DNA of 38,857 bases from Rickettsiales bacterium (GCA_947503755.1 CANNFC010000002.1:1-38857), one strand, 5' to 3'; positions 1-25,500 are shown, counted from the first letter of the stretch. A program made the numbers and translations. Notes: a model not told the origin generated them from the sequence alone.

Positions 1-1361
1 ACACTACCAGATTGTGCACGATAATTAGTTGCATCGGTTTTAGAAAAATCAAATAATATTTTATTGTTATCATAAACTGAAGATAGCATTCTTTCACCAC
101 CGCCAAGGGAAATACAGCTATTTAATGTAGTATCGCTAAGAGCAGAGTTGTAGTAATAGATATTACCAACATAGCCTCGATAATAACCGTGGTTCCAGTT
201 AAAATTGGAATCGTTAACCTTGGAACCGCAACTAATAGTATAAGGAAGAAAATAAACATTAAAAAAACCAGCATTGTCTGTTCTGGTTTTTGTTTTAATG
301 TTTCCTCCATAAATATCGGTAATTTTTAAATAACGTATTTTATTATTATAACGAATGGTAATTATCATTCCATCTACATAATTTGCTTGTTCGGCAGTTG
401 TAAGAACAATACTAAGAAGTGCTGGCATATGAGCAGTTGCAAATTCCACTATTTCTACTGCATTGGTGCCAACACTTACACCTACTCCTGCATAACTTAT
501 TCCATAATAATCACCATATTCTGGGTAAATTAGATATTTAGAACAACCAGTTTCACAATAAGCTGCCGTTCCTCTAGCAGATTCTGTATGGGTTTCTGTG
601 GTGCTGGTAGGTTTAGCATAAATTATTGCTGTAAAGTTATTTTTATAAACTGTGTGATTTGCTGGGGTTTGTAAGCAAGAATTGCCTGCATCAAAAAATA
701 ATGCAGGAGAAGACCCGAAAATATTATTGGCATATTTTGGAGGTGTATTTCTTTGGTTTAAAGTTTTTGTACCAGCTGAATTTGTCCAGCTAGTAAAGTT
801 GGCACCGTTTGTGCCTGTTGCAGGCACAATAAATTGCTCCGTTGGTGAGCATTCTCCAGTTTGGCTCACTGTAGAAGAAGCATGACCATTATAATTGGTA
901 TAGTTTCCTTCGCTACTCCACCCAAAATTGCTGACATTTTTGGTTGAGTCGGCTTGTTGCACAATAAAGATGGTTGCTTGATCGTTGCCGGCAATATCGG
1001 AACGAGAAATATTGAAATTATTGTTGCTAGCATAAAAACCAAGCAACGAATTATCGCCGTTAAAAGCAACTGCCGAACCATTATTAATGCCGTTAGTTTG
1101 GTTTTTAAATAAAATATCGCCGCCGGTTTTGCATTGATTATTACACAAAGTGCCATTTGCTAAAGTAATATAAGAAACATTGCTAGTGCAGGCTTTGCCA
1201 AAAGTGCAAGGATAAGAATTGTTGGGATAAATTGGTTGAAAAGTAAATTTTGGTCCTGTTGGTTTGAGATCATTCCACTTGGTGATGGTTGTATTGTTGG
1301 CAACATTTTCGATTTCAAAAGAACCATAGGTGTTATCTTTGGCTTCGAGCCATAAAGTGAG
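1..1361 (-). other. LamG-like domain 4 (truncated by window edge) with a fifth LamG-like domain inserted at ~105-905
   Basis: LTLWLEAKD...TKWNDLK...TIFIVQQ...SNFGWSSEG, then ~267 aa (FTSWTN...PALFFD...GVGVSVGTN...YRGYVGNIYYYNSALSD), then ERMLSSVYDNNKILFDFS, which aligns by eye with NKLMQISTDSADNGKFKFDFS of domain 1. Confidence 0.7.
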
Positions 1362-4300
1362 ATTATTGGTTATTGGTGGAGTGCAACCTTGCATTTGTAA
1401 GCCATCAGCATCGCAAGTGTAGGTGATATTGGTGGCGGTTTTGACATAGCCAGAAGCGGTATTACACTCAATATTGGCAATGTTTGTTTGGCTTGGTGTA
1501 TATGTATAAGAAAAAGAGGTAGATCCAGTAAAACTTGCGGTTTTTTGATAAGCTTTCCAGCCATTTATTTTGTTGTTAGCATCAAAATCAATAGAGCATG
1601 CAACCGATTGGCAACTACCTCCTATTAAAGAGCCAACTCCGCCATTACTAGAGCATTGAGCAGTTAAAGTGGAAAAGCCAGAGTTTAAAACTGGTTTATA
1701 ACCATTGATGCAATAAACAGTGTTGGCGTGTGTTACTTGCGAATTACTTGCAGAATTGGTGGCACTGGCAACATTAGTGATATTGCAAGTATTTGCCTGA
1801 CAAGGATTGGTTATGGTTTCGGTTTCTGCTAAACAACTTATAGTTGGCGATCCGTAATAAAAAGGAAGACACCTAACGTTGGTGCCGTTAATGGTTGTAG
1901 AAAAATTGGTGTTGATGCCAAGTGGAGAATTAATAATAATATTATTTGCCAAGGCTTCAAGTTCGGTAAAAACACAATTATTAGAAGTGCAGGCGCCAAT
2001 TGTGGTGGTGCCGTTATTTGGGCTACAAATAAAATTACCACTACTGCAAATACTTGTATCTGTGGTAGGAGTTGTTGGTTTGTTATAGCCAAAAGCACAA
2101 GTTAAATTTGGATTATCTAAAATACCTTGGCAACTTGTGGCTGTTGTGGCGGTTATAGTTTGATTGCCGTTAGTTAAGTTAACGGTGCAATTGTTGGTAG
2201 AACAACCAGCATAATTACTGTCATTACAAACAACTGTCGAGCCGCCAGGACTGTTGTATCCTGTGTTGCAACTAATGTTTTGATTGTGTTTATAAGTTCC
2301 GCTTACTAAATCTGGTCTAGTTGGCACAGTGCAATCTCGATAACAAGTTGGCACAACTCCATCGGTGTTTAATCCGCAAACTACAGAAGTGCCATTAGAA
2401 CCATTGCTATAGCCAGTAGCACATTGCACTGCGGTGTTATGATTATAGGTGCCAAAAATAATATCAGTTCTGCTTTGGCTAGGCACAGTGCAGTTAAGAT
2501 AGCATTTGCCATTTCCAGAAACATTGCTTAAAGAATTATAGTCGCCACCATATTGAGTGCAGTTTGCATTCATGGCAAAACCAGAAGTAGCAGTTCTGGT
2601 GCTGGCATTTCCCATGGTAAAACCACTTTGGCAAAGCATAGCTTCATTATGCAAATAAATATTTTTGGTAGTTTTTACACCGCTAGTATCGCTTGCATTA
2701 GAGATGCTACATATTTTAGTAAAGCCCCATTTAGTGGCGAGATAATCTTGCACATTTATTCGATCGGCATCTGACAGAACTGTATTATAAACGATTATTT
2801 CTCCTATTTTGCCACTAAAACCCTCGGCAATTTTTAAAACACCATTTGTTGCAGAAGTAAGAGAGTTTGTGGTTGTTGTATCAAGAACTGTAAAACTATT
2901 GTTATTGCTATTTTCTCTGTTATCTTGATAAGCTTTAACGGCATTACCATTTACAGTGATGGAGATAATTCTGGGATCGTTGCTAGAAGTATTTGAAGTT
3001 GAGGTGTAGGCAGCGTTGCCAAGTGTTATTTTGGTTTGATTGCTTGTAGTATAATTTTCGAGCTTAAATAAATTATTGGCAGTTTCTTGCCATAAAAAGC
3101 TACTGCCACCGTTAGATGTAGCTTGCTGCACAATAAAAATTGTAGCTTGTTTTGAAGTGGTGTTAATTAATTTACTTAAATCAGCATTGTTTGATGTTAA
3201 GGTAGAACTACCGCTAAAACTAATTGCCGAGTTATTATTGATGCCATTTGCACCAGTAACATAAGTGGCATTACCACCGCTAAAATTAAATTTTGTGGTA
3301 GTGGTTTCTTTGATATCGTTCCATAAAGCAATTGCAGAAGGCGGATTATTTTCACCGAAAGAAGAAAGGGTATTATCTTTGGCATCTAACCATAAAGATA
3401 TATTGATTGTATTTGGTGGTGTGCAACCGCTTAAAGTTATTGTGCTGTTAATGCATTTGTATTGTGGGCTTCCAGTATAGCCAGCACTGCATAAAACAGA
3501 ATAATTAGAAGGAATGTTAGTTGTGGTTGTTGTATAAGATAGATATACTTTTTTACTGCTTCTATTAATAATATTATCGCCAAATTTATAAGCTCCCCAA
3601 CCAATGATTTTACCATTTGCATCGCCAGTAATTGAGCAAAATTGCCATTTTTTGGCTAAATAATCGTGAACTGTAGCTACTTCGTTATCGCTAAGAGATT
3701 TATTATAAATCATTAATTCTGCAACTTCGCCAGCATAATATTCTATATTATTCAATTTTCTGCCGACAACAAAATAACCATTACCAGTAGTCAACTTATT
3801 TAAGTTGTCACTTTTAATTTTACTGTCAGTATTATTAAAAATATTGACATAACTACTTGCACTATTGATGTTATTTATACTCATGCTAGAAATGTTGCCA
3901 AGACTATTGTTGGAACTAATGCAACCATTTGCTATATTATTACAATAATAATCGGCATTTTCTCCAGAAAAATAAGCAAAATTATTCATAAATAACATAC
4001 CAGCTCTCTTAGAATTTTGTAAAGAGTTAGAATTTTGTTCAAATAAAGTCATGGTACTAGGAGAATTTATTTTATGCACTGCAATCATAGTGTAACTATC
4101 TGAACCATTAGTAATTGGCATCATATTTTGTGTTGTAGTAAACAAAGAATCATTGCCATCAAAACTAATAACCGGCATATTGTTATAATTAGCAGAGGTT
4201 GTTTTGTAGGTTGGTTTGTTGGCATCGGTGCCTTGAGTAACTTCGGTTGTAGTTCCGCCAGCACTATTTATTTTGCTTATCCAGGTGCCAATTTTTTCGT

Positions 4301-7300
4301 TTGGTGCCGTTCCTGATTTCATAATAGAGCTGGCATCGTTAGCATCTAGCCACAAAGTGAGTGAAGAAGCTATGCCGATATTATAAAATTCGTTTGGCAC
4401 ACAATTTCCGCCAAAAACCCTACCAAGTAAAATATTATTACAGTCGGCAGTAATTGGAGCTGTTTGAGTAAAGCCAGTTTTGCAAGTAATCGGATCGCCA
4501 TGAGTAAAGGTTGTTAAAGTTCCACTTCCGCCAACAATGTTTGGATTTAAAACATTGCATCTATTGATGGTGCAAGTGCCAACAGTGAGTGTTGAGCCAC
4601 TAGATGTGCAATCTAATTTACTGTTAACAATTGCAGAAAAAAAACTATCAACCAATGGTTTGCTATAACCATAAGGGCATTTTGCTCCACCAGTGTTTGT
4701 TGTTGCACCAAGATTTGCAGTTGAGGCATCGGCAAGAATAGTGCTATAAGCGGTGCCATGATCATATGGAGTGGTGCTTGCTAGAGTAGATCCGCCTACT
4801 GAATTATCTTTATTAAAAGTTACATAGCATTTGTTGATACTGCAACTGCCACTAACACTAGCATCTCCGCCATAAAGCGGGCAATTGGCAGAAATGGTGC
4901 CGTTGTAGCCTCTATCGCAAGTTAAAGGCGCTTGATGATCCACTGTTTGATTAGCAAACCCGTTGGCGATTGTGGTATCCCTTGTTACATAACCATAGAC
5001 ACTTGGAGTAATTCTTGTGCAAATTTTTGGAGAGAATCCCCATTTAGTTGCCAAGTAATCTTGCACATTAACTCTTTCGGTATTGTTTAATGATCTTTTA
5101 TAAATAATAATCTCGCCTAATTTGCCAACAAAATCGTTGGCAATAGTAAGAGTGCCAGAGGTGGAAGAAATGCTAGAAGCGGTGTTGTTGTTGATGATTG
5201 TCAAAGCATTTTGATAAGCAATCGTGCCACTAATAGATTTTACTATCGATATTAAAGTTGGGCTTGTGCTATAAGATTGATTTGATGATTTATAGCTTGC
5301 AGTAGGAGAAAAATCGAATTTAAATTTGCCGTTATCGGCAGAATCGGTAGATATTTGCATTAATTTATTAGCACCATCTTGCCACAACAAGCTTGAATTT
5401 CTGCTGGCATTTTCTGATTTTTGCACAATAAAAATGGTAGAGTCGGTGTTGTTGCTAATAATTTTCGCCTTATCAACGGTGGCAGAAAAACTTTGACCGC
5501 TTAAATTAAGAGCGGGTTTGCCATTTATAGCACTAAGGTTTTGCGAAGCAGGGCTTGAAGCGGTAAAATTAATTTTATTAGCACTTAAATCTTTCCATGT
5601 AGTAATATTACTTAAATTACTACCAAAAGAGTTATAAGTGTTATCTTTGGCTTCAAGCCACACACCAAGATCGCTATAATAGGCAGGGCCACAACCTTGA
5701 ATGGCTAGATTATTTCGAGTTGGGCAAGTATAACTTATATTTGAACCAGTAATAGGTGTATAGCCAAAAGAAGTATTGCAAGATAGCGAGCCAGAAGCTA
5801 ATGATGAGGCAGAAAAATCGAGAGCAACAGAGCCAGAAATGATATTTGAGGTAAGAAGATTAGCAATTGGTACTGCTTGCCAATTTGAACCATTGTCGCT
5901 CGTAGTAAATTGCAAAACAGCTCCGCCACCATTTTCATACCACCATATGTTTAAAGGAACTATATCGCCATTATTTAAGTTAATACCATTAGAAGATCTT
6001 AATGTTGTTCCTTGATCTTGCCAAGAATAAACTATATTTTGACCATTTAAGTTAATGACCACTCCATCATCGGTATAGGCACCAAAATAATGAACTCCTG
6101 TTCTAGTTGCTTTATAATAACCGTTAAAATTAATAATCACACCATCGGATCTGTTGGTATCTAAAATATTTTCATTATCCCAGTCATAGTAAACAATACT
6201 AGTAGTTCCAGAAGTTATTATCGGATTGTTAGATCTATCGTTATAACTACTGTTATTTCTTATGTATGTTGTATAATTTAAGCCAGTATTTGCATAAGTA
6301 TAAGCACCAAAGTTGTTGATAATATTGTTTTCACCAGTAGAAATTTGGCAAGCAATGCGGTTGCAACCTTCAAAAATTGCAGGTGTGTTGTGTGTTTCGC
6401 ATTTGTATTTGGCTATACCATCATAACCAGGTGCACAAGTTAGGCCAGCAGTTTCGATTGCTATATCGGTATAATCAAAATTAGTTAAGCCAGTTACTTT
6501 ATAGCCAGTGGTGTTTGGATTTGTGCAGGTTATTCTGGTGCAACTGCCACCAGTGATTTTGCCGGTAGTGGCGGTGGCATAATCGTTATTTAGGCAGTTG
6601 GCAGTGAGAGCTCCTGCACTAGATACATAACCTTTAAGGCAATAAATTTGTTGAGTGTGACTTACTTTTGAAGGTGCTAAAGCACCAGCGGTGCCACTTG
6701 TTAAAGGAACCAAGCATTCATTGGCGGCACAAGAGCCGTTAATGGTGATTGTGTTATTGTTTGTATCGCATAAATAATTAAGTGGGACGAGATTATCGTT
6801 ATAGCCATAAGCACAAGATAACAAACCTTTTTGAGCTGTCTTTTTATATTCAACCAAAGTGGGATTGGCTTGTGAAGAATCTTTAATTACACTGCTGTTG
6901 TATAAAATAGTAGCAAGATCTGTTCTGCTTAACACTCTACACATTTTACCCAAACAGGTTTTGCTAGTGGAATCAAAATATTTAGCATCGTTGATAGTTC
7001 TGTCGATATTAGAAACCGCACATCCACAATTAAATGTGGTGGTTTGATATTTATTTGAATCGCCTTGACAACTATTTTGATCGATGTTGCCATTATAATA
7101 TCCATTAACACCATCTATAATGCCATCTAATATACTGCAATTTACTGAGCAATTATTATTATCTAAAGCGTTGCAAAAATTTTTCCCTTCCTCTCTTAAA
7201 CCTTTTGTATTTTTAAGGCAGGCTTTTTGGCATGCTTTGCTTATTGTAAAATCTGAACCACCAGAAAAACATTTAATCACAATATCTAAAGATGCATTAA

Positions 7301-8063
7301 AAGTATCGTTGGTTAAATCGGAAACATATTGTTTTAAAACGTCTTCTTGACATTGGTAAGAAGTTATATTTAACGATTCACCGTTAGAAATTGTTTTGTA
7401 AATGCCAGTTCTGCTACTGTGTGTTTTGTCTTCATAAAGTTGATTTTCTGGAATATTACATAATTCAGAAGTGCTTTCTGCAACAGTGGTTGTGTCGCTA
7501 AATTGATTGGTGTTACTAAAATCGCTAAAAGAAGCGGTTGTTTTATCGCCAGTGTCAAAAATTTTATAATTGGCAAAGCCATCTGGTGCAAAATCGCTAG
7601 TGCCTAATGCAGGAATTAAATAACCATAAAAATTGCCGTAGCGATTAATAGCATCTTCTTTGGCAATACCTAAAGTTACATAAGGTATTTCGCCGTAATA
7701 ATAGTAATAATCAATATTGTTTATTTTTATAATTTTTGTTGTTAGTCCAGCACAACCTTCAGCTTGTCTTGCCACTTCCTCTCCGGTTCCGCCAGTAGCA
7801 GGGCAGGGCAGAACCATATATCTACAATCACCCTCTTTACATCCTGCACTATTTTTTAGTTTGAGTGCTTCGATTTTATTTTTAATGTTTTGTATTCTTT
7901 TATAATCTACTTTTGTTTGTTTATAGAGGTTTTCAAAGCTATTTACAGCCAAAAAACTAATAGCAACAAGGGCAAAAATAATCAATAAAATCGAGGCATC
8001 AAGCAAGCTAAAGCCTTTTTTAGTTGATTTATTGAAATGTTTTGCTAGTTGCTTGTTTAACAT
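1..8063 (-). CDS. Giant (>=2687 aa, 3' end outside window) prepilin-type N-terminal cleavage/methylation domain protein with Cys-rich modules, PA14 and LamG-like domains; putative pilus-associated adhesin
   Basis: ATG at 8063-8061 gives MLNKQLAKHFNKSTKKG|FSLLDASILLIIFALVAISFLAV, then LPCPA and GEIPYVTLGIAKEDAINRYGNFYGY (pilin-like head motifs). The same frame was read codon by codon without stops over 1-1400 and translated through most of the rest. An internal stop would have produced a long ORF in the supplied track, and none is listed, which fits an ORF running off the window edge. Confidence 0.93.
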   Translation of the reverse strand, partial: MLNKQLAKHFNKSTKKGFSLLDASILLIIFALVAISFLAVNSFENLYKQTKVDYKRIQNIKNKIEALKLKNSAGCKEGDCRYMVLPCPATGGTGEEVARQAEGCAGLTTKIIKINNIDYYYYYGEIPYVTLGIAKEDAINRYGNFYGYLIPALGTSDFAPDGFANYKIFDTGDKTTASFSDFSNTNQFSDTTTVAESTSELCNIPENQLYEDKTHSSRTGIYKTISNGESLNITSYQCQEDVLKQYVSDLTNDTFNASLDIVIKCFSGGSDFTISKACQKACLKNTKGLREEGKNFCNALDNNNCSVNCSILDGIIDGVNGYYNGNIDQNSCQGDSNKYQTTTFNCGCAVSNIDRTINDAKYFDSTSKTCLGKMCRVLSRTDLATILYNSSVIKDSSQANPTLVEYKKTAQKGLLSCAYGYNDNLVPLNYLCDTNNNTITINGSCAANECLVPLTSGTAGALAPSKVSHTQQIYCLKGYVSSAGALTANCLNNDYATATTGKITGGSCTRITCTNPNTTGYKVTGLTNFDYTDIAIETAGLTCAPGYDGIAKYKCETHNTPAIFEGCNRIACQISTGENNIINNFGAYTYANTGLNYTTYIRNNSSYNDRSNNPIITSGTTSIVYYDWDNENILDTNRSDGVIINFNGYYKATRTGVHYFGAYTDDGVVINLNGQNIVYSWQDQGTTLRSSNGINLNNGDIVPLNIWWYENGGGAVLQFTTSDNGSNWQAVPIANLLTSNIISGSVALDFSASSLASGSLSCNTSFGYTPITGSNISYTCPTRNNLAIQGCGPAYYSDLGVWLEAKDNTYNSFGSNLSNITTWKDLSANKINFTASSPASQNLSAINGKPALNLSGQSFSATVDKAKIISNNTDSTIFIVQKSENASRNSSLLWQDGANKLMQISTDSADNGKFKFDFSPTASYKSSNQSYSTSPTLISIVKSISGTIAYQNALTIINNNTASSISSTSGTLTIANDFVGKLGEIIIYKRSLNNTERVNVQDYLATKWGFSPKICTRITPSVYGYVTRDTTIANGFANQTVDHQAPLTCDRGYNGTISANCPLYGGDASVSGSCSINKCYVTFNKDNSVGGSTLASTTPYDHGTAYSTILADASTANLGATTNTGGAKCPYGYSKPLVDSFFSAIVNSKLDCTSSGSTLTVGTCTINRCNVLNPNIVGGSGTLTTFTHGDPITCKTGFTQTAPITADCNNILLGRVFGGNCVPNEFYNIGIASSLTLWLDANDASSIMKSGTAPNEKIGTWISKINSAGGTTTEVTQGTDANKPTYKTTSANYNNMPVISFDGNDSLFTTTQNMMPITNGSDSYTMIAVHKINSPSTMTLFEQNSNSLQNSKRAGMLFMNNFAYFSGENADYYCNNIANGCISSNNSLGNISSMSINNINSASSYVNIFNNTDSKIKSDNLNKLTTGNGYFVVGRKLNNIEYYAGEVAELMIYNKSLSDNEVATVHDYLAKKWQFCSITGDANGKIIGWGAYKFGDNIINRSSKKVYLSYTTTTTNIPSNYSVLCSAGYTGSPQYKCINSTITLSGCTPPNTINISLWLDAKDNTLSSFGENNPPSAIALWNDIKETTTTKFNFSGGNATYVTGANGINNNSAISFSGSSTLTSNNADLSKLINTTSKQATIFIVQQATSNGGSSFLWQETANNLFKLENYTTSNQTKITLGNAAYTSTSNTSSNDPRIISITVNGNAVKAYQDNRENSNNNSFTVLDTTTTNSLTSATNGVLKIAEGFSGKIGEIIVYNTVLSDADRINVQDYLATKWGFTKICSISNASDTSGVKTTKNIYLHNEAMLCQSGFTMGNASTRTATSGFAMNANCTQYGGDYNSLSNVSGNGKCYLNCTVPSQSRTDIIFGTYNHNTAVQCATGYSNGSNGTSVVCGLNTDGVVPTCYRDCTVPTRPDLVSGTYKHNQNISCNTGYNSPGGSTVVCNDSNYAGCSTNNCTVNLTNGNQTITATTATSCQGILDNPNLTCAFGYNKPTTPTTDTSICSSGNFICSPNNGTTTIGACTSNNCVFTELEALANNIIINSPLGINTNFSTTINGTNVRCLPFYYGSPTISCLAETETITNPCQANTCNITNVASATNSASNSQVTHANTVYCINGYKPVLNSGFSTLTAQCSSNGGVGSLIGGSCQSVACSIDFDANNKINGWKAYQKTASFTGSTSFSYTYTPSQTNIANIECNTASGYVKTATNITYTCDADGLQMQGCTPPITNNLTLWLEAKDNTYGSFEIENVANNTTITKWNDLKPTGPKFTFQPIYPNNSYPCTFGKACTSNVSYITLANGTLCNNQCKTGGDILFKNQTNGINNGSAVAFNGDNSLLGFYASNNNFNISRSDIAGNDQATIFIVQQADSTKNVSNFGWSSEGNYTNYNGHASSTVSQTGECSPTEQFIVPATGTNGANFTSWTNSAGTKTLNQRNTPPKYANNIFGSSPALFFDAGNSCLQTPANHTVYKNNFTAIIYAKPTSTTETHTESARGTAAYCETGCSKYLIYPEYGDYYGISYAGVGVSVGTNAVEIVEFATAHMPALLSIVLTTAEQANYVDGMIITIRYNNKIRYLKITDIYGGNIKTKTRTDNAGFFNVYFLPYTISCGSKVNDSNFNWNHGYYRGYVGNIYYYNSALSDTTLNSCISLGGGERMLSSVYDNNKILFDFSKTDATNYRAQSGS
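2727..3401 (-). other. LamG-like domain 3 within the giant protein
   Basis: ISLWLDAKD...IALWNDIK...TIFIVQQ...FSGKIGEIIVYNTVLSDADRINVQDYLATKW. Confidence 0.85.
3645..4361 (-). other. LamG-like domain 2 within the giant protein
   Basis: LTLWLDAND...IGTWISK...NNMPVISFDG...YAGEVAELMIYNKSLSDNEVATVHDYLAKKW. Confidence 0.85.
5040..5669 (-). other. LamG-like (ConA-like jelly-roll) domain 1 within the giant protein
   Basis: LGVWLEAKD...ITTWKDLS...INGKPALNL...TIFIVQK...FVGKLGEIIIYKRSLNNTERVNVQDYLATKW. Confidence 0.85.
5853..6284 (-). other. PA14 domain within the giant protein
   Basis: Translation GLNYTTY...VYYDW...FNGYYKATRTGVHYFGAYTDDGVVINLNGQNIV...LNNGDIVPLNIWWYENGGGAVLQF...VPIANL matches the PA14 pattern, including the DDG motif. 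Confidence 0.85.
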
Positions 8064-8369
8064 TTTTAATTAACAAGCTTGTTTGGTTAGGTTGTTTTGC
8101 ATAAGATTTAAAGACGGGAAATGATATTATAAGCTTTCAAATTCTAGAAAAGGAATTTTTGTTTTCAATCTCTTCTTGTTCTTTTGTTATAAAAAAATGC
8201 TGTATTAATATAAATTGAAACAATAGATATTATAACATTTCCATTAACTAAAACCATAGTATTATTTTAATTAATGGAATTGGTATTGCCATGCAACTTC
8301 ATCAAAAACATTGCTTTTGATAAAAAGTAATTTTAAAATGATGTTTTTAATTTTTTTATCTTTTAAGTT

Positions 8370-9686
8370 ATGATTCAGCGATATTCTTTGCCCGAAATGA
8401 GCTTTATTTGGCAGGCAGAAAACAAATATCAAATTTGGTTTGAAATCGAAATGCTTGCCACCGAGTGTTTAGAGCAACTCAACATTGCTCCAGCGGGCAC
8501 CACCGGCAGGCTTCGGCAAAATTTTGCCAAAGCTGGTGGCAAATTTAATGTAGAAAGAATCGATGAAATCGAGCAAACCACCAAGCACGATGTTATTGCT
8601 TTTCTCACCCATTTGGCCGAACTTACTGGCGAAAATTCTAAATTCATTCACTATGGCATGACCAGCTCTGATGTGCTTGACACTGCTTTATCGATGCAAT
8701 TAACACAATCTTGCGATTTGTTAATCACTAAGTTAGAAAAACTGTTAGAAGCTCTAAAAAAACAGGCTTTCTTACACAAAAATACTGTATGTGTTGGCAG
8801 ATCGCACGGCATTCATGCCGAGCCAACCACTTTTGGCTTGAAAATGGCTAGGTTTTATGCCGAATTTAAGCGAAATTTACAACGTTTAAAAATGGCAAAA
8901 CAAGAAATTGCTATTTGTGCCATTTCGGGGGCGGTGGGCACTTTTGCCAACATTGCTCCACAAGTGCAAGATTTTGTAGCCAACAAGCTTGGCTTGATTT
9001 CTGAAACCATTTCTACTCAAGTAATTCCAAGAGATCGTCATGCTTTTTTCTTTGCCACTTTGGCGGTTATTGCTTCTAGCATCGAAAACATTGCGGTTGA
9101 AATTAGGCATTTACAACGAACCGAAGTTTTAGAAGTCGAAGAATTTTTTAGCCCAGGACAAAAAGGCAGTTCTGCTATGCCTCACAAAAGAAACCCGGTA
9201 TTAAGCGAAAATCTCACTGGTTTGGCAAAAATGGTGCGAAGTGCTGTGGTTCCTGCCCTAGAAAATGTTGCTTTATGGCACGAAAGAGATATTTCTCATT
9301 CTGCGGTTGAGCGATTCATTGCCCCTGATTGTTGCATCACTCTTGATTTTGCTTTGCACCGACTCACTTTATTGGTAGAAAATTTGTTGATTTACCCGCA
9401 AAATATGCAAAAAAATCTCGATAATTTGGGTGGCTTGGTTTATTCGCAACGAGTTTTGCTGGCTTTAATCGAAGAAGCCAACATTTCTAGAGAACAAGCC
9501 TATGCTTTGGTGCAAAAAAATGCTATGAAAATCTGGAGAAAAGAAGAATCTAGTTTTTTGTCTTTACTTGAAAAAGAACCAGAAATAATCAACAAATTAG
9601 GCAAAGAAAAGTTGCAATCATTGTTTGATATTGGCTATCATCTAAAGCATGTCGATCATATTTTTCAACAAGTTTTTAATAATTAA
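8370..9686 (+). CDS. purB: Adenylosuccinate lyase
   Basis: MIQRYS start, HDVIAF, IHYGMTSSD, GRSHGIHAEPTTFG, signature GSSAMPHKRNP, LWHERDISHS. Confidence 0.97.
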   Translation: MIQRYSLPEMSFIWQAENKYQIWFEIEMLATECLEQLNIAPAGTTGRLRQNFAKAGGKFNVERIDEIEQTTKHDVIAFLTHLAELTGENSKFIHYGMTSSDVLDTALSMQLTQSCDLLITKLEKLLEALKKQAFLHKNTVCVGRSHGIHAEPTTFGLKMARFYAEFKRNLQRLKMAKQEIAICAISGAVGTFANIAPQVQDFVANKLGLISETISTQVIPRDRHAFFFATLAVIASSIENIAVEIRHLQRTEVLEVEEFFSPGQKGSSAMPHKRNPVLSENLTGLAKMVRSAVVPALENVALWHERDISHSAVERFIAPDCCITLDFALHRLTLLVENLLIYPQNMQKNLDNLGGLVYSQRVLLALIEEANISREQAYALVQKNAMKIWRKEESSFLSLLEKEPEIINKLGKEKLQSLFDIGYHLKHVDHIFQQVFNN

Positions 9687-22215: not shown

Positions 22216-24792
22216 ATGTCCTTAAATTTTTCTGTTTTACAAGAATATTTCAAAAAATTAAAATCTAAAAAAACAGAAAAATCTAGTGCTGGTAATGCTA
22301 AAAAAAAGCCCTTAGAACAAGAACAATATAACTTTTTACCTTTTGTTTCGCATTACAATCAAAACACCATCATCACCAAAAACGGCGAGTTAATTCAAGT
22401 AATTAGATTGGTTGGTTATAATAATTCTTCCATTTTACACGAGTTAACCAACCTACGCGATTCTATTCGCTATGCTTTAAAAACTTATGTTGACACCAAC
22501 AATATCGCTATCTGGATTACCACTATTAGAAGAAGAAAAAATATTTCACCCGAAGGAGATTTTGATAATTATTTTACTAAAAAAATTAACGACTTTTGGG
22601 AAGAAAAAAACAATTGGCATAACGATTTTATCAACGAGCTATACATTAGCATTGTCATTGAAGGCTTTGATACTTCGGTGGTTAATTTTAAAACTTTTTT
22701 CTCTTCTTTTTCTTATTTTACCACCAAGTTTGCCCACCAGAAATATCTAGAAAATTCTCATCAAAAACTAAATAATATTTGCAATCAAATTGTCGATTTT
22801 TTATGCGATCATGGGGCGAAAAAACTTGGTTTAATTGAATGGAATGAGGTTGTTTATTCCGAAATTATGCGATTTTTTGGTAAAATTTGCAATTTACAAG
22901 AAGATTATTATCCGCTAGTTACTAACGAAATTTGTCAAGAAATATCACAAAATAAAGTGATTTTTGGGGGCAGACAAATTGAGGTCAACACCAATAAAGG
23001 CAAAAGTTTTTCGGCAATGTTTAGTTTAAAAGAATATTTCGATCTCAATCTTCGTTCTTTAGATAAAATTTTGCAACTACCGTGCGAGTTTATTATTTCG
23101 CAATCGCTTGATTTTTTTGCTGATAAAAAAAATATTACCCAAGTAAAAAAAGATCAATACGAGGTTTTAAAACTCTCGGAAAGTCTAGATTTTGCCAAAG
23201 TAATTGGCTTAGATAAATATATTGCTTTTGACGACGGCAATAAAAAAGAATCAACACCAGAAGAAACAGAAGACAAAGAAAAAATAGTTTTTGCCAAAAT
23301 ACAAACAACTATTATGATAATCAACAATGTATTAAAAAATCTCGAAGAAGATGTTAAATTAATTACCGAGCAATTTCGTTTTTTAGGTGTGCCAATCATT
23401 CGAGAAGATATTTTTTTAGAACATTGTTTTTGGTCTCAATTGCCTGCCAATTTTATTTTTTTAAAACGTCAAAAAATCGCTCCTCTTAGCTATTTTGCTA
23501 CTTTTTCTACTCTACATTCTTTTTCTTCTGGTAAGTTAAATGGCAATTCTTGGGGCCCTGCCATCGCAACTTTTCGCACCATTATGAAAAACCCCTATTT
23601 TTTTAATTTTCATTACGATTCGTTTGGCAATACTTTGGTTTTTGGCAATAAAAATTCTGGCAAAAGAGCTATCACCAATTTTTTGCTTGCCCAAGCAAAA
23701 AGAATCAACCATAGCTTGTTTTATTTTGATTTTAACAACAACAATTTACCTTTTATTTCGGCTTTGTCGGGCGAAAGTTTTTATTTGCCTTTGCCAAGTA
23801 AAAGAAATATTTCTTATTTAGAGCAAAAACTCGCTCTTAATCCGTTATTTTTAGAAGATAACAACACCAATCATCGTTTTTTATCAGAATTTTTGTTTAG
23901 TATTTTGGCAAATAATAGCAAAAATATCACCGAACAGCACAGAATAATCATCAATCAAAAGCTTGACATTGCTATTGATAATAAAATAACTGATTTTTTG
24001 CAGTTAAAAGATTTATTTCAAGAAGAACAAGATATTTGGCAAGCATTTAACAATTTAGAGCTTACAAGTTTTTATGATATTTTTAATCACCAAAGCGAAA
24101 TAAACTGGCAAAATCCCAATTTAGCCTTTAATTTAAGCGAAATCCTGCCCGATCAAACTATGTTTAGTTTTGTTTTGCAATATTTACTGCATAAAATTAT
24201 CGAAATGTCTTCTGAAAATAAAGTTATTGCTGTTTTTCGCGATCCTTTACAAATGCTTACCAATGGCTATTTAGAGCAGATATTTTTTAAATTCTGTGAA
24301 AATCTAGAAAAAAAGTTTGGTATTACGGTTTTTATTGTTGATGATGAAGAAAAAAATGTGCAAAATAGCTTGCTTGCAAAAATCAACGATATCAGTCATA
24401 CCAAAATTATTGGTGCCATAAATTCTGATCCTCAAAATATTGCCAAAGCTCTTAATTTAAGCGAAGAAGAGGCGAAAATCGCTCCTTATATTGGCGATCA
24501 GCCAGAAAAAACTTTCTTGCTAAAAAATGATTTTGATTCGGTTTTTGTTAATTTTGAATTAAAAAATCATTTACCAATATTAAAAATTTTATCTTCTTCG
24601 CCAGAAGAAATCTCTATTATTGAAGAAATTATGCAACAAGCAGAAAATAAAAATCCACAAGAATGGCTTGATAATTTTTTTGAAATCGTCGACATTTTAG
24701 AGCAAGAAAAACAAGAATCTATTAAGCAAGCTAAAAAAGCCGAAAATGTTAGAAAGGCAAAAATTAGCAAAGCTAGTAGATATATCGATTAA
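22216..24792 (+). CDS. virB4: VirB4-like T4SS protein with degenerate ATPase motifs (RvhB4-II-like)
   Basis: LPFVSHYNQNTIITKNGELIQVI, FWSQLPANF, NSWGPAI...PYFFNFH; Walker A reads GNKNSGKR and the Walker B position reads IAVFRDP. Confidence 0.9.
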   Translation: MSLNFSVLQEYFKKLKSKKTEKSSAGNAKKKPLEQEQYNFLPFVSHYNQNTIITKNGELIQVIRLVGYNNSSILHELTNLRDSIRYALKTYVDTNNIAIWITTIRRRKNISPEGDFDNYFTKKINDFWEEKNNWHNDFINELYISIVIEGFDTSVVNFKTFFSSFSYFTTKFAHQKYLENSHQKLNNICNQIVDFLCDHGAKKLGLIEWNEVVYSEIMRFFGKICNLQEDYYPLVTNEICQEISQNKVIFGGRQIEVNTNKGKSFSAMFSLKEYFDLNLRSLDKILQLPCEFIISQSLDFFADKKNITQVKKDQYEVLKLSESLDFAKVIGLDKYIAFDDGNKKESTPEETEDKEKIVFAKIQTTIMIINNVLKNLEEDVKLITEQFRFLGVPIIREDIFLEHCFWSQLPANFIFLKRQKIAPLSYFATFSTLHSFSSGKLNGNSWGPAIATFRTIMKNPYFFNFHYDSFGNTLVFGNKNSGKRAITNFLLAQAKRINHSLFYFDFNNNNLPFISALSGESFYLPLPSKRNISYLEQKLALNPLFLEDNNTNHRFLSEFLFSILANNSKNITEQHRIIINQKLDIAIDNKITDFLQLKDLFQEEQDIWQAFNNLELTSFYDIFNHQSEINWQNPNLAFNLSEILPDQTMFSFVLQYLLHKIIEMSSENKVIAVFRDPLQMLTNGYLEQIFFKFCENLEKKFGITVFIVDDEEKNVQNSLLAKINDISHTKIIGAINSDPQNIAKALNLSEEEAKIAPYIGDQPEKTFLLKNDFDSVFVNFELKNHLPILKILSSSPEEISIIEEIMQQAENKNPQEWLDNFFEIVDILEQEKQESIKQAKKAENVRKAKISKASRYID

Positions 24793-24816: not shown

Positions 24817-25500
24817 ATGGATCAAGCCAAAATTGCTCTTGCTTTAAAAATCAATAAAAAAAACAACTTGTGGGCAGAAGAAATGGCGAAAGTTTTGCCA
24901 AATTATCATATCGACAGCAATATTAGATTGGCACATTTTTTGGCACAAATCTGCCACGAAAGCAATTATTGTTTGCAACTTGCTGAAAATCTTAATTATA
25001 CTGATGTTGCTTTGCTTAAACTGTGGCCAAAATATTTTAACAATAATTTAGCCAGTCAATATGGCAGAAACAACAATCATTCTGCCAATCAAGAAGCTAT
25101 TGCGAGCATTGCATATGCCAACCGTTTAGGCAATGGCGATGTGGCAAGTAAAGATGGCTATAAATATCGAGGAAGGGGCTTGATTCAGATTACTGGCAAA
25201 GCGAATTATCAGCAATTGTCGCAACATTTGTTTGGCAACAACGATTTATTAAATAACCCAGATTTATTAAGCAATAACAAAGAAATTAGCATAAAATCGG
25301 CTTGTTGGTTTTGGCAAAAAAATAATTTGAATACCTTGGCAGATCAAGAAAACATTGTTGCCATCACCAAAATAATCAACGGCGGTCAAAATGGCTTGCA
25401 AGATCGCCAAAAAATTTTACAAGAGATGGAAAAAATATTCACAGTAACTGCCTGTGTTGTTGACAAAAATTATCAATTTTCTTTGCCAAATGAAAATTAA
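24817..25500 (+). CDS. Glycoside hydrolase family 19 (lysozyme/endolysin-type)
   Basis: LAHFLAQICHES, ENLNY, YANRLGNG, YRGRGLIQITGKANY, SACWFW, TKIINGG. Confidence 0.92.
   Translation: MDQAKIALALKINKKNNLWAEEMAKVLPNYHIDSNIRLAHFLAQICHESNYCLQLAENLNYTDVALLKLWPKYFNNNLASQYGRNNNHSANQEAIASIAYANRLGNGDVASKDGYKYRGRGLIQITGKANYQQLSQHLFGNNDLLNNPDLLSNNKEISIKSACWFWQKNNLNTLADQENIVAITKIINGGQNGLQDRQKILQEMEKIFTVTACVVDKNYQFSLPNEN

Follow-up and report, generated by a model that had tools for sequence, protein, structure and literature searches.

Introduction

The closest described counterparts of the protein analysed here are the modular pilins, in which non-pilus domains are grafted onto a type IV pilin module. 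In the portions of Raynaud et al. 2021 (PMC8179133) drawn on here, the class is defined through a match to IPR012902, and its architectures include pilins with PF13385 or PA14 modules, which are thought to be tip-exposed. Streptococcus sanguinis provides two examples (PilB, a pilin with a vWA domain, and PilC, a pilin with a ConA-like lectin domain), and the “most extreme case” named there has 860 residues with 12 motif copies (PMC8179133). As set out in the parts of the two articles used here, CofB of ETEC and TcpB of Vibrio cholerae are large minor pilins of type IVb pili, which are located at the tip and initiate assembly (PMC8179133, PMC10191384), and in tip complexes the capping subunit has no Glu5 (PMC10191384).

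The window examined in this study (the whole stretch of analysed DNA, 38,857 nucleotides) comes from a small freshwater Rickettsiales-like bacterium. The initial annotation had proposed that it encodes a pilin fused to a huge multivalent adhesin arm, and had presented this as the best candidate for an undescribed system. Sequence analysis supports the core of the first proposal; the second is not supported as worded, because pilins with grafted LamG (PF13385) or PA14 domains are a described class, as the consulted portions of PMC8179133 make clear.

Results

The minus-strand frame said to run from ATG 8063 to the edge is present in the ORF list as a protein of 2,687 aa with an open 3' side (P0001, Table 1), and no in-frame stop interrupts its translation. 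The start is unambiguous, because merely two sense codons separate the upstream stop from this ATG. The window corresponds to G000:C2:1-38857, so the gene is truncated by the contig end and not by the window. At a G+C content of ~35%, ~7% of random codons are stops (by arithmetic), which excludes a 2,687-codon open frame by chance.

Logan contigs from three lake or freshwater DNA runs, belonging to three studies, cover 30/30 bins of positions 1-8400; they are short and variant-rich across the arm, and no single one spans the whole giant gene. The internal repeats are 25-46% identical at the protein level and only 37-71 bases long at the DNA level, a divergence too great for collapse. Three short contigs from one RNA library give a hint of transcription, with possible DNA carry-over.

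Orthologues were found in three related genomes (64-66% identity across the first 290 residues). In two of them colinearity extends across ~790 aa, and the third (G020) lacks only the PA14 cassette. Residues 1-290 were matched in 25 of 41 related genomes, a count that includes G000, and a second giant subfamily carries FS[LF]ND at the signal. Every giant relative found is likewise open at a contig end. The arm also has a complete relative of 3,202 aa, P0174 (E 1.9e-120), with a lipoprotein-like N-terminus and without a pilin module, which indicates that arms of this kind can be displayed without a pilus.

Table 1. Features of the giant protein P0001 and their positions in the window
Feature	Residues (aa)	Nucleotides	Strand	Remarks
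P0001 frame		3..8063	(-)	2,687 codons, ATG at 8063; 3' side truncated by contig end
Leader peptide, basic, Gly-terminated	1-17	8013..8063	(-)	Predicted prepilin peptidase site between G17 and F18
Pilin module	18-160	7584..8012	(-)	Hydrophobic alpha1-N, Asp +5, long helix (20-72 in the model), small beta head; LPCPA 85-89, GEIPYVTLGI 124-133
Cys-containing low-confidence region	161-390	6894..7583	(-)	pLDDT <50 from aa 184
Three Sushi/CCP-like four-Cys modules	392-567	6363..6890	(-)	392-445, 450-508, 513-567
PA14 domain	592-717	5913..6290	(-)	Pfam match; also GLEYA
Sushi-like module preceding LamG-like domain 1	735-791	5691..5861	(-)	
LamG-like domain 1	800-1011	5031..5666	(-)	
Sushi-like modules	1015-1221	4401..5021	(-)	1015-1074, 1169-1221, degenerate one in between
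LamG-like domain 2	1236-1476	3636..4358	(-)	Sub-threshold Pfam Laminin_G_3
Sushi-like module preceding LamG-like domain 3	1498-1547	3423..3572	(-)	
LamG-like domain 3	1556-1782	2718..3398	(-)	
Sushi-like array	1785-2234	1362..2711	(-)	Five or six recognisable modules, among them 1858-1907, 1911-1959, 2041-2088, 2093-2151, 2175-2234
LamG-like domain 4, N-terminal two thirds	2236-2402	858..1358	(-)	Profile positions 1-147/238
LamG-like domain 5, different subtype	2403-2650	114..857	(-)	Probably inserted in domain 4
Tail, probably domain 4 resumed	2651-2687	3..113	(-)	Contig end truncates

The class III-like signal claimed for the N-terminus is evident in the translation, where KKG↓FSLLD (the arrow marks the predicted cleavage site) precedes a hydrophobic stretch. 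The three orthologues read TA↓F, HG↓F and TG↓F, with G or A at position -1 and F at +1; prepilin cleavage falls after Gly or Ala according to the consulted part of PMC10191384. The pilin-head motifs LPCPA and GEIPYVTLGI, also listed in the initial annotation, are conserved among 17 family members, in which P86, C87, P88 and A89 hardly vary and C104, G124, P127, L131 and Y148 do not vary at all. Moreover, residues 1-290 align with proteins of ~320 aa that have canonical A/G↓F/Y-T-L-I/L-E signals together with LPCPA and G.IP..LG, and the stretch from aa 161 to ~282 is shared with a 698-aa paralogue encoded on contig C22. The +5 residue is Asp, not Glu, in the giant protein, its orthologues, the C22 paralogue and the second giant subfamily. 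When this position was read by a regular expression in the best 150 family representatives, E was returned for 137, D for seven and Q for one; four of the five unread cases are E by eye.

Pfam N_methyl gave no match to the giant protein at E<=1, and a six-frame search of the genome with it matched 10 other genes and not this one. The genome contains 12 pilin-like genes, among which the giant gene and that of the 698-aa paralogue alone have Asp5 and no N_methyl match. N_methyl was matched by seven of the 17 family members. A profile of the pilin module retrieved 10,155 representatives at E<=1e-3 (202 at E<=1e-30), and eight of the 10 top matches scanned contain N_methyl at E<=0.01, five of these above the cut-off; several members bear the public name [quoted passage not shown]. 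These profile comparisons place the first ~160 residues in a large type IV pilin-like family, and the alignments show homology of the N-terminal module to canonical prepilins.

For the first ~180 residues, where a missing pilin fold would speak against the initial proposal, a pilin-like long helix and sheet are predicted. The AlphaFold model (mean pLDDT 54; block means of 58-87 across residues 21-180) places a helix at residues 20-72 and strands at 109-151, where pLDDT is 62-87. In VIA, pilins and pseudopilins take up all of ranks 1-13 among 48,161 PDB chains, and T4b pilins, T4a pilins and pseudopilins are represented among the best matches; the Z values are at most 5.3, which is low and in a range common among unrelated chains. 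The top match is the T4b major pilin CofA (9iuf; Z 5.3, rmsd 3.9, 123 residues aligned). Foldseek returned nothing at E<=0.001 (best E 0.46).

As judged from its sequence, the arm of >2,500 residues is arranged as beads on a string, with ~12 Sushi/CCP-like modules, one PA14 domain and five LamG-like domains. The repeats initially described as “Cys modules” are present, and their identity is corrected here to Sushi/CCP-like. An alignment of 45 modules of ~50-60 residues has four invariant Cys and the consensus C..GY.G...Y.C; the profile built from it matched CCP/Sushi domains in 35 of 35 PDB matches at E<=1 (best 7.6e-7), and the nearest ESM Atlas clusters are CCP-type proteins. With a single-module model (pLDDT 63.5), Foldseek gave a best E of 4.4, and three of the five weak rows were SCR proteins. 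The CCP repeats known from animals and poxviruses (Crry, CR1, DAF, factor H) have the same four-Cys spacing and C..GY.G...Y.C core. In contrast, Pfam Sushi (PF00084) found no match in 10 segments of the giant protein at E<=10, and the Trp conserved between Cys3 and Cys4 in the Sushi family is mostly lacking in the window modules displayed. P0135, a family member from elsewhere, passes Pfam Sushi with 31.9 bits (cut-off 20.7).

The PA14 domain reported earlier was recovered above the cut-off of 24, with 31.4 bits when the whole protein was scanned and 38.6 bits for the excised piece (profile positions 2-127/147), and GLEYA matches the same piece with 27.9 bits (cut-off 26.2). All five of the proposed LamG-like domains are likewise present, except that the fourth is apparently interrupted by the fifth. 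Pfam Laminin_G_3 (PF13385) matches domain 2 alone, with 20.8 bits, below the cut-off of 27.6. The LamG-like assignment received 99.2% probability (E 5.6e-20) in hhalign. In a local LamG profile, domains 1-3 score highly, having been included in its construction, and domains 4 and 5, which were left out, score 1.3e-11 and 2e-9. Against the pilin heads of the same genome, tblastn with the LamG-like domains gave E values from 2.5e-10 to 1.7e-4, and PF13385 is above the cut-off in two of the six small-pilin heads of the genome (34.7 and 31.8 bits). Domain 5 shares homology with the head of a pilin of 321 aa from a relative, and for every LamG-like type the genus also has an ordinary ~300-aa pilin that bears it as its head. 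These small N_methyl + Laminin_G_3 pilins have heads homologous to the five LamG-like domains of the giant protein, whereas they bear a single head, have Glu5 and belong to another alpha1 family than its LPCPA-type module. The tail after domain 5 aligns with domain 4 at a local score of 43 (shuffles 28.8 +/- 4.7, maximum 49), colinear with the point at which that domain breaks off. Domain 5 is probably nested within domain 4, which the tail probably resumes, the evidence for the latter being weak.

The TyrRS encoded in the window best matches MAGs labelled Rickettsia, Midichloriaceae and Rickettsiaceae, which fits the original taxon guess. The window search also agrees with the statement that pilus machinery genes are absent from this stretch; no pilus gene adjoins the giant gene, and those of the genome are scattered. 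The search for pilD, pilB, pilC and a secretin elsewhere in the genome, proposed in the initial annotation, revealed all four: PilB (T2SSE, 423 bits, with MshEN), PilC (T2SSF family; present in 20/22 genus genomes), PilD (A24_N_bact, 81.6 bits; Peptidase_A24, 46.5 bits) and a secretin (108 bits). The genome also encodes a separate PilT-like ATPase of 343 aa, as well as DsbA and DsbB. In this 95%-complete genome PilN and a small major pilin were looked for and not found, and for PilM the matches were weak, with a sum of 34.1 bits for one frame. Of the three findings that the initial annotation named as contrary to its proposal (a stop or frameshift in the frame, no predicted pilin fold, no machinery in the genome), none was encountered.

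Discussion

The giant protein carries at least one non-pilus domain after a pilin module and is, on its domain order, a modular pilin, though one without a match to IPR012902/PF07963. It shares with the modular pilins described in the parts of PMC8179133 drawn on here the grafted carbohydrate-binding modules of the LamG/ConA-like and PA14 types, as well as the proposed tip location and adhesin role. It differs in its Asp at +5, its Sushi/CCP-like spacers and its occurrence in a diderm with a secretin. With at least 2,687 aa and ~19 extra domains it far exceeds the 860-residue case named in the consulted text; Dataset S1 of that article may include examples that are larger than this case or that bear Sushi domains (PMC8179133).

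The other comparisons, likewise limited to parts of the cited articles, concern proteins of the pilus tip. CofB and TcpB resemble the giant protein in that extra beta domains follow the pilin module via a linker (PMC8179133, PMC10191384), whereas CofB, compared by description, carries two such domains and, as a trimer, docks a secreted partner, and the arm analysed here is ~10x longer. The tip-capping minor pilins GspK/PilK are also bulky and non-canonical at +5, which suits a subunit with no neighbour above (PMC10191384); in contrast, the giant protein, again compared by description, keeps a carboxylate (Asp) and lacks the GspK-type alpha-domain insertion. The T4a tip adhesins PilY1/PilC are similarly large and modular, with variable effector modules, but PilY1 is a non-pilin that docks via a C-terminal beta-propeller, whereas the anchor of the giant protein is its own pilin module (PMC8179133).

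We consider it probable (roughly 0.65) that the giant protein is a modular minor pilin which acts as a pilus-borne adhesin. Its hydrophobic helix would insert it into the inner membrane, PilD would cut after Gly17, as predicted, and the many disulfides of the arm would form in the periplasm. The alpha1 helix would then carry the protein into a type IV pilus, most probably as the first, tip-located subunit because of its bulk and non-canonical +5 residue. The thin arm would be pushed through the secretin in front of the fibre, where it may attach to the surface of a host, a prey organism or a particle as a far-reaching, multivalent adhesin of the lectin type; it could be drawn back when the pilus retracts. 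Several points count against this reading: the missing N_methyl match and the Asp at +5, the low VIA Z values, the lack of a Foldseek match at E<=0.001 and the low mean pLDDT, the distance of the giant gene from the scattered pilus genes, the unsuccessful searches for PilN and a small major pilin and the weak PilM matches, the arm of P0174 on a protein with no pilin module, the truncated 3' end and the faint hint of transcription. In addition, we know of no precedent for a pilin of ~0.28 MDa passing through a secretin.

It is unlikely, though deserving of some weight, that the protein never polymerises and is a membrane-anchored surface or periplasmic protein, whose N-terminus has degenerated to a plain signal-anchor and whose arm is displayed or released by other means. 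This would be consistent with the combination of Asp5 and a missing N_methyl match in just two of the 12 pilin-like genes, with the similar arm that P0174 bears on a lipoprotein-type anchor, and with the remoteness of the giant gene from all pilus genes. On the other hand, every orthologue and the second giant subfamily retain G/A at -1, F at +1, an acidic residue at +5 and the motifs of the head, which points to selection on pilin-specific positions and not on hydrophobicity alone. Anchoring in the inner membrane would, in addition, confine the lectin and Sushi domains of this diderm to the periplasm, where they would have no evident ligand.

We regard it as improbable that the protein serves a type II secretion-like system instead of a surface pilus, either as a component of the pseudopilin type or as a cargo-adapter, with the arm only briefly at the secretin. 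The T2SSE, T2SSF, Peptidase_A24 and Secretin families are common to T2SS and T4P, and the results for PilN and PilM would also suit such a system. However, the genome has an extension ATPase with an MshEN N-domain and a separate PilT-like ATPase, which we take to fit a retractile pilus, and the best structural matches take in T4b and T4a pilins besides pseudopilins. To our knowledge, moreover, known pseudopilins carry no arm of >2,500 aa. Very improbable, finally, is an assembly artefact (repeated modules joined into a chimera) or a decaying, unexpressed pseudogene: the contig edges that end the giant gene and all its giant relatives and the short, variant-rich Logan contigs would allow it, but the length of the stop-free frame at this G+C content, the divergence of the repeats, the full bin coverage by runs from three studies and the colinearity of the orthologues, apart from one PA14 cassette, argue against it.

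To conclude, the giant protein of this Rickettsiales-like bacterium is an extreme example of an already described kind of protein, whose unusual points are its size, its Sushi rod, its conserved Asp5 and its Rickettsiales-like host. A start resembling that of a pilus subunit, followed by a long chain of sugar- and protein-binding modules, suggests that it probably forms a very long, sticky pilus end.

A single open frame truncated by the assembly

The minus-strand frame that the initial annotation had followed from ATG 8063 to the window edge is indeed a single open frame of 2,687 codons, with an open 3′ end and only two sense codons between the ATG and the upstream stop. Since the first base of the window is also that of contig C2 in its genome (G000; 1.29 Mb in 87 contigs, 95% complete), the gene has been truncated by an assembly break. 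At the approximately 35% G+C of the window, about 7% of random codons are calculated to be stops; a chance origin of the frame is therefore ruled out, and the frame is real. The missing C-terminus was not found on any other contig end of G000, and an orthologous fragment from the related genome G003 was unusable as a completion, because it ends differently (about 165 aa of Cys modules, then a stop).

In three DNA runs, each from a different lake or freshwater study, Logan contigs covered all 30 bins of window positions 1-8400. The region encoding the arm, i.e. the part of the protein beyond its pilin module (positions about 1-6450), was represented by short contigs with many variants, including an in-frame 6-base deletion at 1497 present as a variant in all three lake runs, whereas the 5′ end of the gene (6458-8400) was found in long contigs with 1-5 differences. 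This contrast between a variant-rich arm and a nearly identical pilin end and upstream region suggests strain-level diversification of the arm. The internal repeats of the protein share only 25-46% identity, as revealed by a scan with 120-aa fragments, which was used instead of a whole-protein self-BLAST that returned the self-hit alone. In an RNA run (X20), 5 of the 30 bins were matched by three short contigs, two of them with many differences, which is insufficient for a claim of expression. Five further open frames of 1,841-2,393 aa are present in G000 (see the table).

Locations of the features discussed in the text
Feature	Location	Strand	Remarks
Giant pilin-like protein	window 3..8063	-	3′ end open
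VirB4/CagE-type ATPase gene	window 22216-24792	+	858 aa; alone after citrate synthase
GH19 (chitinase class I / lysozyme-like) match	window 24817-25500	+	227 aa; next after the VirB4/CagE-type gene
Asp5 paralogue	L011:1491-3587 (G000 C22)	-	698 aa; signal A/FSLID
TrbL/VirB6-domain protein	L016:6846-10727 (G000 C25)	+	1,293 aa; domain near C-terminus, 49.3 bits
Second-subfamily giant	L032:6937-14835 (G022:C8)	+	signal KKG/FSFND
Second-subfamily giant	L033:6233-13690 (G014:C10)	+	Asp5 pilin, runs off contig
PilB	G000		T2SSE 423 bits + MshEN
PilC	G000		T2SSF 150 bits
PilD	G000 C5		A24_N_bact + Peptidase_A24
Secretin	G000		108 bits
PilT-like ATPase	G000		343 aa
Third T2SSE protein	G000		may be VirB11
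DsbA, DsbB	G000		both encoded
N_methyl pilin genes	G000 C9, C20, C26, C31 (three tandem), C50 (two tandem), C68, C84		several with LamG-like heads
Further long frames	C30 1-7179	-	no tblastn match to giant; one of these five runs off its contig
	C17 8581-14901	+	no tblastn match to giant
	C45 1407-7235	-	no tblastn match to giant
	C33 3965-9661 and 9665-15187	+	no tblastn match to giant

The N-terminal module belongs to a large pilin-like family

The proposed class III-like signal and hydrophobic helix are present: a basic leader and KKG/FSLLD (the slash marks the candidate cleavage site) are followed by about 22 mostly hydrophobic residues. The first 290 residues gave matches in 25 of the 41 related genomes, a count that includes G000. 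Orthologues (64-66%) occur in G020, G012 and G003, every one cut by a contig end. A second giant subfamily was identified in G022 (2,633 aa) and G014 (2,486 aa); both proteins are open at the contig end, and nearly all of their sequence consists of several dozen Sushi-like modules. The same search retrieved proteins of about 320 aa, arranged in tandems of three, with canonical signals (A/YTLLE, G/YTLIE and A/FTLIE). NKRLPCPA and G.IP..LGL occur both in these proteins and in the giant, in which the corresponding LPCPA and GEIPYVTLGI motifs were earlier read as those of a pilin head. C104, G124, P127, L131 and Y148 do not vary in a 17-member alignment, and P86-C87-P88-A89 vary very little; Pfam N_methyl was matched by 7 of the 17 members, with no match in the giant.

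A profile of the module (175 positions) searched against 1.84 billion representatives yielded 10,155 matches at E<=1e-3; 5,621 of these reached E<=1e-10, and 202 reached E<=1e-30. N_methyl was present in eight of the ten top matches scanned (five over the cut-off), and several top matches are publicly named [quoted passage not shown]. The best 150 of the 10,155 representatives have a median length of 345 aa (90th percentile 631, maximum 1,871), and 142 of them contain PCPA. A relative of 1,871 aa (P0009) has been recorded.

The AlphaFold model of the N-terminus (17-row alignment) had a mean pLDDT of 54, with block means of 58-87 for residues 21-180 and, from 181 onwards, of 22-44, and comprised a helix (20-72) with strands after it. 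Foldseek retrieved nothing from the PDB at E<=0.001 with the pilin module. In a VIA-align comparison with 48,161 chains, ranks 1-13 were exclusively pilins and pseudopilins (among them CofA 5.3, TcpA 4.2, EpsG 4.1, PulG 3.9, PilA4 3.8), all at low Z, and these values carry weight only through the uniformity of those ranks. An NCBIfam search of the whole protein returned 0 families; a word-indexed search of proteins of 1,477-4,703 aa with the first 420 residues gave no match, and a genome-contig search for related loci with the giant as single protein gave no relative. A TcpS match on the hydrophobic helix (20-22 bits, cut-off 28) was set aside, as were chance matches to Hydrophobin_2, PoNi_N and SieB.

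A probable lectin and Sushi-like arm

The PA14 domain noted earlier (aa 592-717) scored 31.4 bits when the whole protein was searched and 38.6 bits when its piece was searched separately, and is the sole Pfam-supported domain of the arm; GLEYA scored 27.9 bits on an arm piece. The five LamG-like domains also stand; Pfam Laminin_G_3 gave just one match, sub-threshold. Small pilins of G000 (about 290-350 aa) carry N_methyl and Laminin_G_3 heads (over the cut-off in three and two, respectively, of six scanned), and these heads match the giant's repeats in tblastn (E 2.5e-10 to 1.7e-4). A local LamG profile, built from domains 1-3 of the giant and five small-pilin heads, with domains 4 and 5 left out, recovered both of the latter: domain 4 (E 1.3e-11) aligned over aa 2236-2434 with profile positions 1-147 of 238, and domain 5 (E 2e-9) over aa 2418-2650. 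A 321-aa pilin of the related genome G009 has a head with 27% identity to domain 5, and hhalign matched domain 5 to the other LamG set with a probability of 99.2% (E 5.6e-20). The last 37 residues of the giant align to LamG-like domain 1 directly beyond the point at which domain 4 breaks off (score 43, against 28.8 +/- 4.7 and a maximum of 49 for shuffles); domain 5 is thus, on weak evidence, probably inserted within domain 4.

The Cys modules recognised in the initial annotation are likewise present, and can now be described as Sushi/CCP-like. In 45 aligned modules (34 of them from G022, 7 from the window and 4 from G003), four Cys are invariant and a C..GY.G...Y.C core is apparent. All 35 PDB matches of the resulting profile at E<=1 are CCP/Sushi proteins (best Crry, 7.6e-7), and the nearest ESM Atlas clusters, which we treat as a lead only, are Sushi (0.93). 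Pfam Sushi was passed by one family member from elsewhere and by none of the window's own modules. A model of a single module (pLDDT 63.5) gave Foldseek values of E>=4.4, with nothing from the PDB at E<=0.001. The giant contains 12 such modules at i-E<=0.003, seven of which are within the profile. Overall, the giant very probably belongs to the pilin family and bears a long arm of lectin and Sushi modules.

The arm as a probable set of exchangeable parts

The PA14 cassette (region of aa 592-740) is absent from the G020 orthologue (L021, G020:C96) and kept in those of G012 and G003; this is a whole-domain gain or loss between species of one genus. The G003 fragment, an orthologue of aa 2306-2650 with 56% identity, carries Cys modules in place of LamG-like domain 4 both before and after domain 5, and ends about 165 aa further on. 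A complete public protein of 3,202 aa (P0174) has an arm in common with the giant (E 1.9e-120), containing PA14 twice and LamG-like and Sushi-like modules. In place of the pilin module it has a lipoprotein-like signal at its N-terminus, as read from the sequence, and a glycine-rich region; the arm seems to be portable between anchors. Every lectin-type domain of the arm recurs as a small-pilin head within the genus. This recurrence, the coming and going of PA14 and the lipoprotein-anchored arm together point to a fast-evolving recognition surface composed of exchangeable parts.

Pilus machinery and genome context

As previously stated, the window itself lacks pilus machinery: the remainder comprises housekeeping genes together with one VirB4-like and one GH19-like gene, and no pilus gene. 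The search elsewhere in G000 recovered PilB, PilC, PilD, a secretin and a PilT-like ATPase, scattered amid housekeeping genes. PilC was recovered from 20 of 22 genomes of the genus, the two exceptions having completeness values of 70% and 57%; among the 41 relatives the count is 35. PilN (PF05137) had no match in the 95%-complete G000, and PilM matches there were weak. The ten N_methyl genes of G000 all lie in frames of 241-386 aa. No pilin shorter than 200 aa was found in this genome, and the major pilus subunit is therefore not obvious; it may itself be lectin-headed. A complex prediction of the module (aa 18-160) with the three tandem LPCPA-family pilins of C31, run without controls, scored 0.01 against a mark of 0.32, a value that speaks neither way on binding.

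The TyrRS encoded in the window has 83% identity to that of a lake MAG labelled Rickettsia and 50-53% to those of MAGs labelled Midichloriaceae and Rickettsiaceae. The 1,293-aa protein of C25 is an enlarged VirB6 of the kind found in Rickettsiales. The scatter of T4SS genes is consistent with a Rickettsiales-like genome, and the TyrRS matches and the VirB6/TrbL protein fit a freshwater Rickettsiales-like alphaproteobacterium.

Aspartate at position +5

Asp at +5 is found in the giant, its three orthologues, the 698-aa C22 paralogue and the second giant subfamily. Among the best 150 family representatives it occurs in only seven, all close to the giants within the query profile; 137 have Glu by regular expression, and of five that gave no reading four have Glu by eye. 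One family member of 1,157 aa has kept Glu5. A review describes a pairing of Glu5 with the N-terminal amine of the next subunit up, and the capping of tip complexes by a subunit without Glu5 (PMC10191384). A changed +5 residue in the bulkiest pilins would fit a capping subunit. The C22 paralogue resembles the first approximately 280 residues of the giant (27% identity, E 9e-14), has a Cys-rich body without Pfam matches, and has orthologues in G012, G003 and G016.

Relation to modular pilins and biological meaning

The suggestion that this protein represents an undescribed system is not upheld, since the concept of modular pilins is already established. As set out by Raynaud et al. 2021 (PMC8179133), these comprise more than 1,200 proteins in 264 architectures, PF13385 and PA14 modules among them; they are expected to be tip-exposed, and the most extreme case has 860 residues. 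The giant fits this concept, but is about three times longer than that case and lacks the IPR012902 signature used in that search, which it would therefore have escaped. Among the papers listed in a literature search, none dealt with Sushi-bearing pilins, judged by title or abstract. What sets the giant apart is its size, the conservation of Asp5 and the lineage of its host.

We infer candidate cleavage, polymerisation, tip location and adhesion for the giant. Our fullest reading, to which we would give roughly three chances in ten, is that a distinct Asp5 class of giant pilins caps the retractile T4P of Rickettsiales-like bacteria that live free or as epibionts. A lectin line with Sushi joints, of about 0.3 MDa, would be thrown through the secretin and reeled in, acting as a long-reach catcher of eukaryotic hosts that would predate intracellular life in the order, and its arm would be quickly rebuilt by cassette exchange with ordinary pilin heads and lipoprotein-anchored adhesins. 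If the module is only an anchor that never polymerises, the giant would still be a large surface protein with Sushi, PA14 and LamG domains, from a lake bacterium not yet in culture, albeit of ordinary interest.

The giant also stretches the modular pilin concept, by its length and by its place in a diderm, in which the whole arm would need to pass through a secretin. T4P components occur in basal and some crown Rickettsiales, for which a role in host attachment has been proposed (PMC10847448, PMC9352585); in the accessible text of these two papers the word "pilin" is absent and no pilus-borne adhesin is named. The giant is a concrete candidate molecule for the proposed pilus-mediated host attachment in Rickettsiales, as the component in contact with the host.
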